Shown: in pieces, positions 17,364 through 64,000 of the stretch
How positions within the stretch are numbered: position 1 is the stretch's first letter
Layout: each line of letters starts with the position of its first letter
Source of the DNA: Gammaproteobacteria bacterium
Lineage (GTDB): Bacteria > Pseudomonadota > Gammaproteobacteria > SZUA-152
Reading direction: 5' to 3'
Length of the DNA stretch: 64,000 nucleotides
NCBI GenBank assembly: GCA_021647505.1
Contig: JAKIUN010000001.1
Coordinates: forward strand, 97,828-161,827
Notes under the pieces: generated by a model
What the model was told of the DNA's origin: nothing
Seen by the model: only the letters and a program-made list of their open reading frames with translations
The model's database searches: none
Program-made: the position numbers and the translations under genes

Positions 17364-17393
17364 GCGTGGGCATGGAAAGCCTGCCCACCCTAC
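17364..17393. repeat. REP-like palindrome (GTGGGCA...TGCCCACCCTAC)
   Basis: GCGTGGGCATGGAAAGCCTGCCCACCCTAC shares the TGCCCACCCTAC arm with the perfect palindrome at 61016-61040. Confidence 0.5.
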
Positions 17394-54425: not shown

Positions 54426-54797
54426 GACAAACTCCCTGCCGTTCAAATAATTCGGATCTTTTTGTGCGCTTTCCCGCAAAGAAAAACTGCCGTAGCCACA
54501 ACACTATTCTTTCCAGAGTGCCTGCGCAGTAAGAAAGAGTATTAACACAACCAGCGGGGAGCTGTTCAATAAATCTGCACAAAAAACAAAATGATTTTCT
54601 ACGCCAAGAGAAATGTCCTCCACATTTGTTATGCAGTATGCGGAAGATATACAGGAAAAACAGCAAAAATATGAGAAAACACCCTTTTTCCGCATTGACT
54701 TGCGCATATTGAAAGGGGTAGGTTTACAGCGATAAACAGTAAGCAGCACTCATTGGCAACGCTTGTTTATGCGCTTGACGAAGGGAGACAGTCGATT

Positions 54798-55976
54798 ATG
54801 AGGATTGTCCTGATTGGTGCGCCAGGATCTGGCAAAGGCACCCAGGCCAAGAAACTGGTCAGCCGCTACGGGGTACCACAGATTTCCACTGGCGACCTGC
54901 TGCGCGCCGCCGTCGCCGCAGAAACACCCCTCGGCCTGCAAGCCAAGGCCGCCATGGATGCAGGGCAACTGGTCTCGGATCAGATCGTACTCGACATGAT
55001 CGAAGAACGCATGGCTGAGCCCGACACAGAAAAAGGCTTCATCCTCGACGGCTTCCCACGCAACATCCCACAAGCTCAGGCACTCGATGCCATGCTGGAT
55101 AAGCTGGGACGCCCGTTGAAAACCGCCATCCTCATCGACGTGGACTTCGACCTGCTGATCCAACGCATCGCCGGCCGTCGCACCTGCTGTAGTTGTGGAC
55201 AGATGTACAACATCTACACCTCTCCGCCGAAAATGGATGGCCTGTGTGATGTCTGTGGCGGCAAGTTGCACCATAGAGCCGACGACAATGAAGACACCAT
55301 CACCAATCGCCTACGCGTTTACGAGGCGCAGACCGCACCACTGATCAACTATTACAAGGCTCAGGGCAAGCGGTATATCGTCGATGGTACGGGCACGCTC
55401 GATGAAATTTTCCAGCGTCTGTGCAATATCATCGATGGATTACCCACCCACGAAAGTCTGGAATCTGCCAGAAAGGCCGCCAGATTTGAACAAACTATTC
55501 AAGAAATGGTGGAAAAGGCCGAAGCCAAGCCCACCCCAGATACGCAAACAACTCCAGTCGCCAAAAAGGAAACCCGGATCATGACGGCAAAAAAGAGAAC
55601 AGCAACGAGCAAGAAGGCGGCGAGCAAAAAATCAGCCGCAAAGAAAAAGATCGCCAAGAAAACCGCCACAAAAAAGAAAGTGGCCAACAAGAAAAAGACT
55701 GTAAAAAAGAAGGTTGCCGTTAAAAAAGCTGTCGCCAAAAAGAAAAAAGCCGCTGTAAAGAAATCGATGAAAAAGAAGGTGGCGACCAAGAAAAAGACGG
55801 CAAAAAAGAAGGTAGCTAAGAAAAAGGTAGCCAAGAAGAAGGTCGCTACCAAGAAAGTATCACCGAAGAAGAAATCTGCAAAGAAAAAGGCCGCCGGAAA
55901 GACGCCTGCGAAGAAGAAGGCCCCGGTCAAGAAGAAAGGGGCAAAGAAGAAGGCCGCAGCCAGAAAAAAGCGCTGA
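54798..55976 (+). CDS. adk: Adenylate kinase fused to a ~175-aa Lys/Ala-rich histone-H1-like tail
   Basis: AAGGGAGA SD before ATG 54798. MRIVLIGAPGSGKGTQA P-loop. Cys4 LID (CCSCGQ...CDVCGG). The Adk fold ends near residue 215. The same frame then continues without a stop through (A/V)KKK repeats to 55976. Confidence 0.85.
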   Translation: MRIVLIGAPGSGKGTQAKKLVSRYGVPQISTGDLLRAAVAAETPLGLQAKAAMDAGQLVSDQIVLDMIEERMAEPDTEKGFILDGFPRNIPQAQALDAMLDKLGRPLKTAILIDVDFDLLIQRIAGRRTCCSCGQMYNIYTSPPKMDGLCDVCGGKLHHRADDNEDTITNRLRVYEAQTAPLINYYKAQGKRYIVDGTGTLDEIFQRLCNIIDGLPTHESLESARKAARFEQTIQEMVEKAEAKPTPDTQTTPVAKKETRIMTAKKRTATSKKAASKKSAAKKKIAKKTATKKKVANKKKTVKKKVAVKKAVAKKKKAAVKKSMKKKVATKKKTAKKKVAKKKVAKKKVATKKVSPKKKSAKKKAAGKTPAKKKAPVKKKGAKKKAAARKKR

Positions 55977-56124
55977 CATAACGAACCACCCCCGGCTTGT
56001 TTCCTGCCGGGGCCAGCCTTACAATCGGGCGCACAGGGTGACTTGTGCGCCCGAGCTGTTTCCGGGCCACCGATTTTCAGCCCCCCCCCCCAGTTTGCGA
56101 ATGCAGGAGTAACCTAGTGCCTAA

Positions 56125-60017: not shown

Positions 60018-60198
60018 ATGATCCACCTTGCCGACAGTGACCGGGACATCAGCCGCTGCATCCCCGTGATGGGGCAACTGCGCCCACATATTCCGCCGGC
60101 AGATGCCGCAGGGCTACCGCCTGGCTATGCTCGAACGCGATGACACCGTGGTCGCCCTGGCGGGCTTTCAGTCCGTAAAACCAACCCGTCAGTGTTAA
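60018..60198 (+). pseudogene. Decayed, truncated GNAT acetyltransferase gene
   Basis: Frame 1 reads MIHLADSDRDISRCIPVMGQLRPHIP and stops at 60141-60143. Frame +1 from 60097 reads RQMPQGYRLAMLERDDTVVALAGFQSVKPTRQC and stops at 60196-60198. Together these are only the first ~60 residues of a common GNAT family, with an internal deletion/frameshift and no acetyl-CoA-binding half. Confidence 0.55.
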
Positions 60199-60277
60199 CG
60201 GGTGGTTGTTGGGTTTTATCGCTTTGGCTTTAAATTTGACTGAATGCCTCGCCGAAACCTCGGCACAGTATTCGGGG

Positions 60278-60976
60278 TCAGCTGTCTTGCTCGTCGGCAG
60301 GTTTCTTGCTGGGCAGCACCTCGAATTCCACCTTGATCTCCAGGTCACCGTTATCCACACCAATGTGTGCCACATAATCGCCGGGGGCGGTCTGTGCATC
60401 GGTGCTGATAAGCAGGGTCAGCTTTTCGAAATCCTTGGGGGCGATGTCCAGGCGCTCCGGCTGAAAACACAGGGCGGTCTCGGTCAGGGGCTGGCCGGCA
60501 CTGATACGTGTGCCACGCATGTCCTGGCAGGCAAAGACCAGGTTTTCCATGGGTAGGTCGGCAGGGTTCTCCATCGACAAAGGGATGCGCAATGTCCCAC
60601 CCTGATGCACTCTGGGGAGGCGTGCCGCAGCACGGTCTTTTTCGGGGGTGCTCATGGGCTCGGTGGCCCGGGCGTCTGTCGATGCGTCCTTGCCTGATCC
60701 ACTGTCCGCTGTTCCGCCCGTAGCCCCGCCCACCACTGAGACCACGAGGCCAATGACGTTGGTCAGGGTGGTCACCCCATAATGCACCATCTCGCCAAGT
60801 GGCCCCTGCGGGGTATTCGGGTTGGCGACGGGTTTACCCACTGCGGTGACTTCCGCCAGGGTTTTGGTAATCGCCGCACCCACGCCAAAGGCCGCATTGA
60901 TGACGTCCGAGACACCTTCTGCCAGCGATGGGTTGGCACGGTTTTCCTGCTCTTCGCCCTGCTTTTGTTTGCTCAT
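60278..60976 (-). CDS. Hypothetical protein (232 aa): Gly/Val-rich hydrophobic N-region, low-complexity linker, beta-rich C-domain
   Basis: Long ORF with coding-like composition. No motif recognised. Confidence 0.55.
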   Translation of the reverse strand: MSKQKQGEEQENRANPSLAEGVSDVINAAFGVGAAITKTLAEVTAVGKPVANPNTPQGPLGEMVHYGVTTLTNVIGLVVSVVGGATGGTADSGSGKDASTDARATEPMSTPEKDRAAARLPRVHQGGTLRIPLSMENPADLPMENLVFACQDMRGTRISAGQPLTETALCFQPERLDIAPKDFEKLTLLISTDAQTAPGDYVAHIGVDNGDLEIKVEFEVLPSKKPADEQDS

Positions 60977-61015
60977 GATTTATTTATACCTCTAAACGAT
61001 CCTCAGCTTCCTGGC

Positions 61016-61040
61016 GTAGGGTGGGCAGTGCCCACCCTAC
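61016..61040. repeat. Perfect 12-1-12 palindrome (REP-like)
   Basis: GTAGGGTGGGCA-G-TGCCCACCCTAC in the gap between two orphan ORFs. Confidence 0.85.
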
Positions 61041-61160
61041 AGATAAGAGGATTGTGTATTTTGTGGTGGCACACGCCTCACGCTAAGACTTGTTTAGAGG
61101 CATATGATTTTTTGCTCGGTGATGGTTATTTCAGCAACACGGAAAGCCTGGGAACTGGCG

Positions 61161-61718
61161 TCAAGGATTACCCGGCGGCGTGGTTTTGGGTTGTGGGCAG
61201 GGATTATCTTCACATTGCTGAGGGGTGGCTACCGTGGCACCCGTCAGGCGCAGGGACATGACGCGGTTCTTGCCCATGCGCAGCTCCATGACATAGTCGG
61301 ATGCGATATGCCAGGGATTGCAGAAGCGCAATTGCAGGGGCGTGCGCATTTGCAGTGCGTGGTGAATGGGTTCGGCAAGTGCCGTATTCACCTTCAGGGC
61401 ATGATCCAGCGGTTCGATCTGGTGGGTCTGATGATGATCGTTGGCAAAATGGTGGGCCATACGGACATGTAACGGGGCCTTTTCATCACCCTTGAGGGTG
61501 ATTTCGCCGGATACCTTGCATTCGCAAGGGTGCTCTGCATCCCAAGACACCATGTGAACCAGTGGTTGCTGGGGATGGGTCGCATGTTGTACTTGATGTT
61601 TGACCGGTGGTTTTTCAGCGTCACCATGTAGTTGCAGGCCGCCATCGTGCTGAAAGCGGTCGCCGGTCTTCTGCCCGATGACGAGGGTTTTGCTTTCCCG
61701 GGATTTTTTTTCTGCCAT
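61161..61718 (-). CDS. Histidine-rich hypothetical protein (185 aa, 17 His)
   Basis: ATG 61718 lies 17 nt after the upstream stop, with AGGAAG upstream. His occur in HH/HxxH clusters, and there are four Cys. Confidence 0.5.
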   Translation of the reverse strand: MAEKKSRESKTLVIGQKTGDRFQHDGGLQLHGDAEKPPVKHQVQHATHPQQPLVHMVSWDAEHPCECKVSGEITLKGDEKAPLHVRMAHHFANDHHQTHQIEPLDHALKVNTALAEPIHHALQMRTPLQLRFCNPWHIASDYVMELRMGKNRVMSLRLTGATVATPQQCEDNPCPQPKTTPPGNP

Positions 61719-61735
61719 GAATCACTTCCTGCCGC

Positions 61736-63193
61736 TCAGCGGATTTGATAGACATCCATGATGAATTCATTGTCACAGACCCAGCTTTCCAGCCGGATCT
61801 CCACGTCGTGGTCACCACCCAGGCAGGCATGGGCGAACTGGATACCCGCCTCGTCTGAATCATGCAGACACAGTTCTTCATTGTCCACCAGCACCCTGAA
61901 GCCGCCGGGCAGCTTGAACTGGAAGCGATAGACGCCGGGATTGAAGCAACCCAGGCCCCGCCATGCGGCAGGATAGGGGATGCGCAGGTCACGCAGGGTC
62001 TGGGGCTGGAGATCGCTGCTGGGCACGCCGTCGGTGCAGGCGAAGCCCTCCGGGCCGTGATCCAGTGATTCGCGGGCGATGGTGATCCACACCGGGCGGC
62101 TGGCTGAGGCCAGGTGGGCCAATAATTTCGCGGCGAACACCAGGCCCATGGTGGCTTGCGCCACTTCGTTGACGGTGGACATCTCGCCGGTTTCGAGCCG
62201 GTTCAGACGGGCCATGGCGGTGTAAGCGATGGAGGCAGTGGCAGGGGCGTCATAGCCTGTGTCGTTCGTACTGCCCACGTCACCGTGGCTGGCATCATCG
62301 GAATTCCCCGAGTCCCCGTCCTTGATCAAGATGGCGTTGACCTGCATGCGCAGATTGTCACGCAGGCCCGCTTCGAACAGTTCGTAAGACAGCGATCCCT
62401 TGGCTACGAACAGATCCAGGGTCATCGGCGTGAAGGGCGTCAAGCCAATGGTGTTGCCTGGGCCGGTGAAGGGGGGGGCGGTGGTAAAGCGGACGTGGGC
62501 GAAGCTGCTGGCGGGGCTGCTGGTGCCAGTGCCACTGAAGGGGGCCCGAATGAGGCTCAGGGATTCCACGAAACCATCCACTCGCTGGGCGCGCTGGTCG
62601 CCGAAGGCGCTGAGGCTGTTGTCCAGGGCGACGGCGTGGATACGTCCTCTGGCGGCGCTATATCCGGTGTCGTTCTCCGTGCTGACAAAGAACTGTGCCA
62701 GCCGCCCATGGGCCTGGGCCTCGCGGATCATCTCCAGTTGCTGGCTCACGACCAGGCGTTCCGGTGATTGCAGATTCAGTTCCAATATTGCCGTGCCGAG
62801 ATTGGTGGTGACGACCTCGACGAGCGCCATATCATGTTGCTCTCTGTCACCCGCAGTCTGGTTGCGGGCAAGCACCGACACACTGACCACCAGCCCTACG
62901 ACCATGGTCAGATTGAGCGGTGAATCCAGTTGGTCACGGCTGATGCGCGCCGCCTGCTGGATTTCGTTGCCCGACTCGCTCTGCGTGTGTTCGATGAACA
63001 CCGGTTCGGCACGATTCATGGCGTCGCGCAGGATGCCGATCTTGGTCAGACGCTCATTGAAACGTTCCGGATCGCCGTCGATATCACGCACTACGTATAC
63101 GCCGCTGCTGCCGTCGCTGTGAATCAGGGTGACACGCACGAGGCCGGCGCGCCCGACCTCGATCTTCTGTACAAAACCTCGTACCGTTGCCAT
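61736..63193 (-). CDS. Hypothetical protein (485 aa)
   Basis: AAGGAG lies 7 nt upstream of ATG 63193 (MATVRGFVQKIEV...), which I prefer to the track start at 63232. No family recognised. The C-terminal ~90 aa are possibly a PA14-like beta-sandwich (GVYRFQFKLPGGFRVLVDNEEL). Confidence 0.6.
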   Translation of the reverse strand: MATVRGFVQKIEVGRAGLVRVTLIHSDGSSGVYVVRDIDGDPERFNERLTKIGILRDAMNRAEPVFIEHTQSESGNEIQQAARISRDQLDSPLNLTMVVGLVVSVSVLARNQTAGDREQHDMALVEVVTTNLGTAILELNLQSPERLVVSQQLEMIREAQAHGRLAQFFVSTENDTGYSAARGRIHAVALDNSLSAFGDQRAQRVDGFVESLSLIRAPFSGTGTSSPASSFAHVRFTTAPPFTGPGNTIGLTPFTPMTLDLFVAKGSLSYELFEAGLRDNLRMQVNAILIKDGDSGNSDDASHGDVGSTNDTGYDAPATASIAYTAMARLNRLETGEMSTVNEVAQATMGLVFAAKLLAHLASASRPVWITIARESLDHGPEGFACTDGVPSSDLQPQTLRDLRIPYPAAWRGLGCFNPGVYRFQFKLPGGFRVLVDNEELCLHDSDEAGIQFAHACLGGDHDVEIRLESWVCDNEFIMDVYQIR

Positions 63194-63274
63194 GACAAAA
63201 CTCCTTTCTCTCGATTCAGAAAATAGGTTCAATAACGCATTGCGGCGATAATGCGGCCAGACAACCGTTTGTCG

Positions 63275-64000
63275 TTATGGATCCGGGCGCGGCATGCGTC
63301 CCATGCCGCGCAGATCCTCGGCACTGCGTGACAGGCGCCGGATAGACAGCTCACCGGGAAACACAAAGCCAGCGCGGAACACGGTGATACCGGTCAGACA
63401 GCTGGTAATTTCCGCAATGCCATTCACCACCGGTGGGATGGGTTCAATAATGGCGCCCTGTTCGTTGGCGATGTCTTCCGCCACCTCACCGCCCACCCTG
63501 TCGATGGTGATCTCGATGACAATCAGGGCGATCCAGCCGGCGATGGGGATAATGATTTCCAGAAAGACGTCACAGCAACTCTGATCGAAATCGAAGTCGC
63601 CTACGACGGGAGAGTCAATCACCAGTTCACAGCCGTCTTCGCTGTCTTCGCGGTGTGCACGCATGAAAACAGGCCCTTCGAATTCCACCGTGGGGTCCCA
63701 CCAGCAATCAATCTTGACCTTGGTCTTGCCGCTTATCCACAGGTGCCCCTCACTTTCTTCGTGTTCACCGGGGTCGGCCAGGGAGACGTTGAGTTCGTAG
63801 AGCACGGCATCGCCTTCCGGTGTTTCTATCAGTTCGCCGTCATCGCTGCTGACACCGGGAAATTTCTCGGTGATCACTGCCTGAATTTCTTCCTGCACCT
63901 TCGCCGCCCCCACTGCCAGAGCCAGCTCGCGGCCGTCGAGGAAGTTGTCCGGCACGGCATCATCCGCCGCCGTGCCCGAGCGCCGATTGAGCAGGATGGC
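63275..64000 (-). CDS. Hypothetical protein with one hydrophobic helix, N-terminus beyond window
   Basis: The frame stays open from GTG 63955 to nt 64000 (15 further sense codons), so the gene probably starts outside the window. Hydrophobic segment FLEIIIPIAGWIALIVIEITI. Confidence 0.5.
   Translation of the reverse strand, partial: AILLNRRSGTAADDAVPDNFLDGRELALAVGAAKVQEEIQAVITEKFPGVSSDDGELIETPEGDAVLYELNVSLADPGEHEESEGHLWISGKTKVKIDCWWDPTVEFEGPVFMRAHREDSEDGCELVIDSPVVGDFDFDQSCCDVFLEIIIPIAGWIALIVIEITIDRVGGEVAEDIANEQGAIIEPIPPVVNGIAEITSCLTGITVFRAGFVFPGELSIRRLSRSAEDLRGMGRMPRPDP

Follow-up and report, generated by a model that had tools for sequence, protein, structure and literature searches.

A conserved gene cassette with a predicted TULIP protein and isoprenoid enzymes at the edge of a gammaproteobacterial DNA stretch

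A stretch of 64,000 nucleotides from a gammaproteobacterial genome (GenBank assembly GCA_021647505.1, contig JAKIUN010000001.1, positions 97,828 to 161,827), here called the window, ends in four minus-strand open reading frames (ORFs), B, C, D and E. They belong to a conserved gene cassette that encodes a predicted TULIP (tubular lipid-binding) protein and candidate enzymes of isoprenoid metabolism. An earlier interpretation made from the letters of the window by a model (hereafter, the sequence-only reading) had singled out these ORFs as a candidate uncharacterised system, and all four lie where it placed them, the fourth being open up to the window edge (Table 1). It had also pointed to a Shine-Dalgarno (SD) site, and this is borne out: AAGGAG lies 7 nt ahead of the ATG of gene C at 63193, where a TTG upstream, at 63232, is also possible as a start. 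Likewise, the 17 nt that it counted from the stop of the 485-aa ORF to the next ATG are correct. In comparison with an 88%-identical relative (L004), the ratio of nonsynonymous to synonymous substitution rates (dN/dS) is 0.08 for both B and D, 0.16 for C and 0.33 for E, and each of the four families has hundreds of homologues. Thus, these are real genes and not chance ORFs, and they are under purifying selection.

The sequence-only reading had not been able to place any of the four in a family. Searches of B, C, D and E against Pfam, NCBIfam and PADLOC at E <= 1 returned noise only, and this includes the best PADLOC score among them (E 0.039). Rfam and tRNA scans of the window also gave no match. 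The label of "orphan" genes has to be given up, since these are widespread and highly conserved families that merely lack a model.

Table 1. Positions of the features discussed and presence of each cassette gene. L001 is the 35.7-kb contig of GCA_021648705.1; presence was counted only over loci with enough flank for the gene concerned.
Feature	Sequence	Position	Strand	Description	Presence
Gene E	Window	60278..60976	minus	232-aa ORF	41/41
Gene D	Window	61161..61718	minus	185-aa ORF	42/42
Gene C	Window	61736..63193	minus	485-aa ORF with SD site	
Gene B, 3′ part	Window	63275..64000	minus	last 241 codons; frame open up to window edge	
Gene B, full	L001	7038-8798		586 aa	37/37
Gene A	L001			285 aa	35/35
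Gene F	L001			356 aa	30/32
Gene G	L001	3033-4766	minus	577 aa, ~240-aa N-terminal extension	29/30
Gene H	L001			176 aa	25/25
Gene K				~130-170 aa	31/39
Gene adjoining H	L001	1635-2330	plus	231-aa coiled-coil-like protein	
Palindrome in D-E spacer	Window	61016..61040		perfect 12+12 palindrome GTAGGGTGGGCA-g-TGCCCACCCTAC; begins GTAG, ends CTAC, REP-like	
Further copy of palindrome half-site	Window	17382-17393			
GNAT fragment	Window	60018-60242	plus	frameshifted N-terminal fragment, ~60 aa	
Lys/Ala-tailed ORF	Window	54753-55976	plus	407-aa ORF	
C run	Window	56081-56091		11 C, intergenic, upstream of hemB	

The cassette beyond the window

The 485-aa and 185-aa proteins are present with identical sequence on a 35.7-kb contig (L001) of another gammaproteobacterial metagenome-assembled genome, GCA_021648705.1. 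This contig runs past the window edge and gives the rest of the cassette. As had been anticipated, the cluster continues beyond nucleotide 64000, with the rest of B and with genes A, F, G and H, in the layout H176 <- G577 <- F356 / A285 -> B586 -> C485 -> D185 -> E232. Gene A, which encodes a basic protein, precedes B, and its stop overlaps the start of B, while F, G and H are divergent upstream genes.

The distribution of the cassette was scanned with one genome per GTDB species, which yielded 46 loci whose six-frame ORFs were searched with the L001 proteins. The order and orientation H <- G <- F / A -> B -> C -> D -> E is found nearly everywhere among these loci; two loci from Acidobacteriota differ in having the H-G-F unit on the downstream side. 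The gene neighbourhood is therefore conserved as a fixed layout over 46 species-level loci. The sequence-only reading had taken the four window genes for a co-conserved multi-component system, and they do co-occur in every relative with enough flank. In addition, clustering of the flanks of the 46 loci revealed a ninth gene, K, which is convergent, lies directly after E and encodes a helical protein. A copy of ispH (LytB) is adjacent in 23 loci, often after K, including the close relatives L004, L005, L006 and L048. K and ispH are the sole flanking genes that recur across distantly related loci; the remaining recurrent groups come from close relatives only or consist of unrelated genes in at most eight loci. 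In this way, the unit does reach past the edge, as proposed, but it comprises 8-10 genes, isoprenoid enzymes among them, rather than "four plus". A gene for a coiled-coil-like protein adjoins H in L001 and also in L004, L046 and L048. As it is kept only in close gammaproteobacterial relatives, it probably does not belong to the core cassette.

Carriers are found in Gammaproteobacteria (Chromatiales, Ectothiorhodospiraceae, Sulfuricaulis), Betaproteobacteria (Caldimonas, Derxia), Alphaproteobacteria (Phenylobacterium sp. LjRoot225, Rhodobacter sp. SW2, Roseobacter, Sphingomonadaceae) and Actinomycetota (Lentzea, Nakamurella, Acidimicrobiales), as well as in Chloroflexota, Acidobacteriota, Candidatus Brocadia and Gemmatimonadota, and thus in both monoderm and diderm phyla. 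A secreted assembly, as the sequence-only reading had imagined it, is supported neither by this mixture of hosts nor by the proteins, since no N-terminal signal-like segment is seen in any cassette protein.

Homologues number at least 304 for C, at least 215 for B and 416 for F, all of them labelled "hypothetical" and none with a Pfam domain. Conservation is high. The cassette proteins are about 40-65% identical between Proteobacteria, Actinomycetota, Chloroflexota, Acidobacteriota, Planctomycetota and Gemmatimonadota; mean column identity reaches 51% in the alignment of B and 59% in that of F, and the C proteins of other classes and phyla are 37-55% identical to the window copy. Gammaproteobacterial copies share 53-55% identity with those of Chloroflexota and Brocadia, whereas they share 37-45% with alphaproteobacterial ones. 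This greater closeness to other phyla points to horizontal transfer, with carriers in at least eight bacterial phyla, and, together with the cross-phylum distribution, it bears out the accessory origin that had been suggested for these genes. No paralogy was seen among the nine cassette families in an all-against-all hhalign comparison. Family searches with the window proteins, the extra cassette proteins and the orthologue sets (Pfam and NCBIfam, with PADLOC for the window four) gave only polyprenyl_synt, and PDB-sequence profile searches with families B, C, D, E and F and with the N-terminal domain of G gave no match. In total, sequence comparison with Pfam, NCBIfam and PDB finds no relative for seven of the nine core proteins.

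Folds and motifs of the A to E proteins

A structure comparison with Foldseek, which had been proposed with the sequence-only reading, relates B to TULIP proteins and C to OB folds with a possible PA14-like end. For gene B, an AF2 (AlphaFold2) model was built on P0241, which is 94% identical to the B586 protein of L001, with an alignment of 35 sequences. The model (pLDDT 81.6, pTM 0.71) consists of repeated units in which a helix is followed by long beta-strands. Its top 11 Foldseek matches in PDB are all TULIP proteins, with E-values from 4e-8 to 3e-5; for instance, CETP is matched at 4e-8, LBP at 5e-8, OrfX2 at 6e-8, BPI at 1e-7 and P47 at 1.6e-6, and YceB and BPIFA1 come lower in the list. 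The predicted structure also shows the long alpha-helix wrapped by a curved antiparallel beta-sheet, often in tandem, that characterizes this superfamily. On these grounds, B is predicted to be a multi-domain TULIP protein.

The known bacterial TULIP families are P47/OrfX2, YceB/DUF1439, DUF4403, DUF2140 and DUF2993, with described bacterial members that are lipoproteins or are located in the periplasm or secreted (PMC6791001); TipA is a further bacterial TULIP. By sequence, B matches the models of none of these families. Moreover, B and 22 orthologues have no Pfam match even at E <= 10, and no PDB sequence match. By its predicted structure, B is a new bacterial TULIP family. Longer orthologues of B, of 730-760 aa, occur in Brocadia and Chloroflexota (L008, L009, L012, L015 and L043; P0251-P0258 and others) and contain a ~150-aa internal duplication of the second module (YDGNRD...LKVT.PIHV...YGR..FWR), which suggests that the TULIP array is modular.

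B carries an invariant Cys-Cys pair and, as had been noticed in its partial ORF, one hydrophobic helix (FLEIIIPIAGWIALIVIEI, at residues 488-513 of the model); the partial ORF has a single very hydrophobic 19-mer, with a Kyte-Doolittle value of 2.33. This helix may form the core of a TULIP domain or insert into the membrane, and need not be a transmembrane anchor. The proposal that the proteins are membrane-associated hence stays plausible, but for a different reason, namely the predicted TULIP nature of B.

The AF2 model of C (pLDDT 73) contains three beta3-alpha-beta2 units, that is, OB folds; the secondary-structure pattern expected of a tandem OB array, in which each five-stranded barrel has a helix between strands 3 and 4, is found three times. 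These folds are followed by a variable disordered linker, an invariant low-confidence segment (ASASRPVW...LRDLRIPYPA.W) and a C-terminal beta-sandwich with conserved Cys residues. Foldseek gives single-stranded DNA (ssDNA)-binding arrays as the top matches in both PDB and BFVD (RPA70 at 1e-6, LEF-3 at 1.5e-6, and the OB arrays of Teb1 and BRCA2), and one of the OB domains resembles the crystal-forming protein CipA (TMt 0.71). The PA14-like end proposed for this protein is weakly supported at the level of the fold, with Foldseek E-values of 3e-3 to 7e-3 only and TM-scores of 0.27-0.29 when normalised by target length, but none in the Pfam PA14 model, which does not match C.

The two smaller ORFs had been described as His-rich and as having a Gly/Val-rich N-terminal region, and both descriptions are accurate: 9.2% of the residues of D are His, and the N-terminal part of E is rich in Gly, Ala and Val. 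In an alignment of 23 orthologues, D has invariant H55, H89, H95, H119, H120, W59 and W136 and near-invariant C133, C169 and C174. It is a candidate metal-binding or adaptor subunit. The Acidobacteriota copies of D (L013:11407-12006, and L014) contain an extra internal repeat of ~24 aa of the segment (A)GD.K.P.R.(E/R)M. The alignment of E shows amphipathic helices rich in Ala and Gly at the N-terminus, connected by a variable linker to a C-terminal beta-sandwich region (TLRIPLS.EN...PRDFEKL...APG.Y). Members of the family have weak matches to the NPCBM_assoc/NEW3 and FixG_C Ig-like domains, which support an Ig-like character of the C-terminal domain. Finally, A is a helical protein with a variable Lys/Arg-rich tail (22% K+R).

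Predicted enzymes of the cassette

G matches PF00348 (polyprenyl_synt) at 3e-54. The motifs DDIAD, GKGLRP, HRR, KT and GKR are invariant in G, and those for binding of isopentenyl diphosphate (IPP) and of the allyl substrate are kept, while the second Asp-rich motif is an invariant DDVLN (DDVLN...E), not DDxxD. By these motifs, G is a trans-prenyl-diphosphate synthase with a complete catalytic signature. In such synthases, the residue at position -4 of the first DDxxD motif informs product length, and the Phe found there in G suggests a short chain, probably of about C15-C20. Weak matches to Terpene_syn_C_2 are seen in 7 of 18 G orthologues (best E 2e-4). Taken together with the DDVLN motif, they indicate that G might be terpene-synthase-like and not purely chain-elongating. 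G also scores 184 bits against NCBIfam NF041169, for which the cut-off is 450, and this is below its generic IdsA match; an encapsulin-cargo identity was rejected because of this score and because there is no shell gene.

F has no direct family match in Pfam, either by itself or with its orthologue set. A profile search with F among 1.84 billion representatives led to a wider related family, to which F aligns with an hhalign probability of 99.9% (E 6e-36). Of the 66 members of this family, 30 have a weak match to Tocopherol_cycl (best 1.2e-5), 26 to DUF2804 and 6 to CrtC, with the Tocopherol_cycl and DUF2804 matches all under the gathering cut-offs. Through this intermediate family, F appears to be a remote relative of the tocopherol cyclase/DUF2804/CrtC superfamily. 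Tocopherol cyclase and CrtC act on prenyl chains via protonation of double bonds. F itself is rich in Arg, His and Trp. One of its remote relatives, P0509 (508 aa), ends in an SCP2 sterol-carrier domain that scores higher than the gathering cut-off (23.1 bits), which provides an independent link between the F enzyme family and lipid carriers.

Proposed function and comparison with known systems

The G synthase, the apparent relationship of F to tocopherol cyclase and CrtC, and the frequent presence of ispH place the cassette in the context of isoprenoid lipid metabolism. The reading that we favour, to which we give about an even chance, is that of a cytoplasmic complex that binds, chaperones or delivers a hydrophobic terpenoid produced by the enzymes of the cassette. 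The B to E proteins would form this one complex, the isoprenoid made by the cassette would be its ligand, and handling that lipid would be its role in the cell. IspH would supply IPP and dimethylallyl diphosphate, G would build a prenyl diphosphate, and F would cyclise, hydrate or at least hold the prenyl chain. The hydrophobic product would be taken up by the TULIP tube of B. As adaptors or scaffolds, C, D and E (and K) would have the task of opening, capping, oligomerising or targeting this tube. Through the amphipathic helices of E and K and the hydrophobic helix of B, the complex could attach to the membrane at its inner face. There is a precedent in TipA/TipB, where a bacterial TULIP shares an operon with a small adaptor of the beta-sandwich type by which the tube is opened (bioRxiv 10.1101/2025.09.09.675085). 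A bolder version of the proposal, which seems rather unlikely, is a self-contained cytoplasmic lipid machine. It would be an organelle or a particle akin to a lipoprotein, where a terpenoid made on site is packaged by a new TULIP family together with a triple-OB/PA14 scaffold, a metal-binding subunit of the His/Cys type and an amphipathic coat, and it would have spread as a unit over eight phyla or more.

Several observations weigh against a terpenoid-handling complex. For B, the Foldseek matches have low global TM-scores (0.15-0.36, the best being P47), as is to be expected from multi-domain models, so that the TULIP assignment depends on the E-values and on the consistency of the top matches. 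Tandem OB folds such as those of C are typical of ssDNA binders, for instance RPA and LEF-3, and not of lipid systems; as A is in addition very basic, a link to nucleic acids has to be considered. D has no fold assignment and matches nothing in Pfam or PDB. F has lost the motif YHDHNWG of its relatives, with GYHERVRG.WGW in its place, and its role could be one of binding and not of catalysis. An SCP2-like nature of the N-terminal domain of G was considered and found unsupported, with one member matching Alkyl_sulf_C at E 0.14. Lastly, K and ispH are absent beside the cassette in this genome, and the local copy may consequently be incomplete.

The alternative that survives best, although it is unlikely, is a storage or sequestration particle, in which B to E, K and A would coat or fill a terpenoid-rich body in the cytoplasm instead of shuttling lipid to the membrane. 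CETP, LBP and BPI, the structural matches of B, act on lipoprotein particles or lipid aggregates. The extra copy of ispH suggests a high flux, the amphipathic helices of E and K resemble droplet-surface proteins, an OB domain of C has the likeness to crystal-forming CipA mentioned above, and the very high conservation across phyla would fit a tightly packed assembly. Nevertheless, G looks like a short-chain enzyme and not like a maker of polymers or waxes, and no shell-type fold, either HK97 or bacterial microcompartment (BMC), was found among the cassette proteins.

Quite unlikely, in turn, is a nucleic-acid-directed system, for instance in defence or stress, where C and the basic A would be the binders of ssDNA or RNA, with the isoprenoid and TULIP parts as effector or signal. 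The ssDNA-binding OB arrays among the top matches of C and the Lys/Arg-rich tail of A speak for it, and the patchy, horizontally transferred distribution is like that of accessory defence cassettes. By contrast, the cassette has no nuclease, helicase, ATPase or nucleotidyltransferase, and its neighbours are housekeeping genes instead of defence islands. The PADLOC scan, which covered the four proteins encoded in the window, gave no match. Relatives of C were sought on plasmids and in viral contigs, and none was found. Besides, OB folds also bind proteins and sugars.

It is also improbable that the four genes are unrelated neighbours or that, after a loss of K and ispH, they form a decaying remnant that no longer works in this genome. 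This alternative draws on the state of the locus. Homology to the close relatives (L004, L005, L006 and L048) ends ~36 nt past the stop of E, and K and ispH, both of which these relatives have after E, are not in the 64-kb window. Between aroE and E lies the fragment that the sequence-only reading had called a destroyed GNAT gene. This is plausible, as the fragment is frameshifted, but its tblastn matches to annotated GNAT genes, which come from plasmids, are weak, and PDB gave no match for it. In addition, the spacer between D and E measures 184 nt here vs ~60 nt in close relatives and contains a palindrome like the repetitive extragenic palindromic (REP) elements. With the further copy of its half-site elsewhere in the window, there are three matches where 0.25 would be expected by chance, and the palindrome is probably an insertion or a transcript-stabilising element, not an ancestral part of the cassette. 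Still, the strict co-occurrence of the genes across phyla, the intact reading frames and the dN/dS values of 0.08-0.33 all argue against decay, and, of 39 other loci, 8 likewise lack K while retaining the rest of the cassette.

Farther from E, the GNAT fragment is followed by aroE, pitA, a PhoU-like gene and hemB. A run of C lies upstream of hemB. The window also contains a 407-aa ORF whose start looks adenylate kinase-like by eye (...RLRVYEAQTAPLINYYKAQGKRYIVDG...) and whose end is a Lys/Ala-rich, histone-H1-like tail of ~140 aa (KKAAKKKV repeats) with an AT skew of 0.71; this region has no gene among the called genes of contig L001.

The weakest alternative, an accessory module of the OrfX/P47 type, in which B would be like the clostridial TULIPs that lie beside neurotoxin or insecticidal toxin genes, is barely credible: OrfX2 and P47 are among the best matches of B and P47 has the top TM-score (0.36/0.48), but none of the 46 loci contains a gene for a toxin, for NTNH or for an OrfX1/3-like protein, B has neither a Pfam P47 match nor a secretion signal, and the hosts are free-living environmental bacteria.

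Literature searches for this combination of genes found no description of it. As far as searched, the parts of the cassette come from known superfamilies, and its architecture at the system level is without a described counterpart. Its conservation and horizontal spread suggest a function under strong selection. If the complex handles a terpenoid as proposed, it would be, as far as could be found, the first cytoplasmic TULIP system of bacteria and the first TULIP genetically tied to the biosynthesis of its likely ligand. The question of what bacterial TULIPs carry would then become directly testable, and the cassette could reveal a new bacterial terpenoid and, in F, a non-canonical prenyl-chain enzyme. 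Cultured carriers include Phenylobacterium sp. LjRoot225, Rhodobacter sp. SW2, Lentzea sp. NPDC051213 and Paraburkholderia sp. XV.

Several parts of the cassette can be compared with known systems. C shares with RPA and LEF-3 three consecutive OB folds in beta3-alpha-beta2 order, but has no sequence similarity to them, is fused to a putative PA14-like domain and lies in a lipid-related operon. Family 2 encapsulin operons also contain, like G, a polyprenyl synthase with a long N-terminal extension beside structural proteins; they differ in that no cassette protein matches an encapsulin or HK97, B and C being TULIP and OB folds by prediction. F appears to be related to the tocopherol cyclase/CrtC/DUF2804 superfamily through the intermediate family, yet it is under all Pfam thresholds, its central motif is changed, and there is no aromatic prenyltransferase or carotenoid gene near it. 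In the TULIP superfamily (BPI, LBP, CETP, the bacterial families and TipA), a long helix wrapped by a curved beta-sheet is repeated as in B, and TipA/TipB, like the cassette, has its TULIP gene in an operon with proteins that contain beta-sandwiches. B differs from the known families in having no sequence match, signal peptide or lipobox, and for none of them has a link to isoprenoid enzymes been reported. The complex proposed here would share its concept with the Ubi metabolon, a cytoplasmic complex in which UbiJ, through its SCP2 domain, and UbiK shield a hydrophobic isoprenoid while soluble enzymes act on it, and with other soluble carriers of polyprenyl intermediates. An SCP2 domain is also present, as a fusion, in one remote homologue of F. 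The cassette has neither homology to UbiJ or UbiK nor quinone-ring enzymes.

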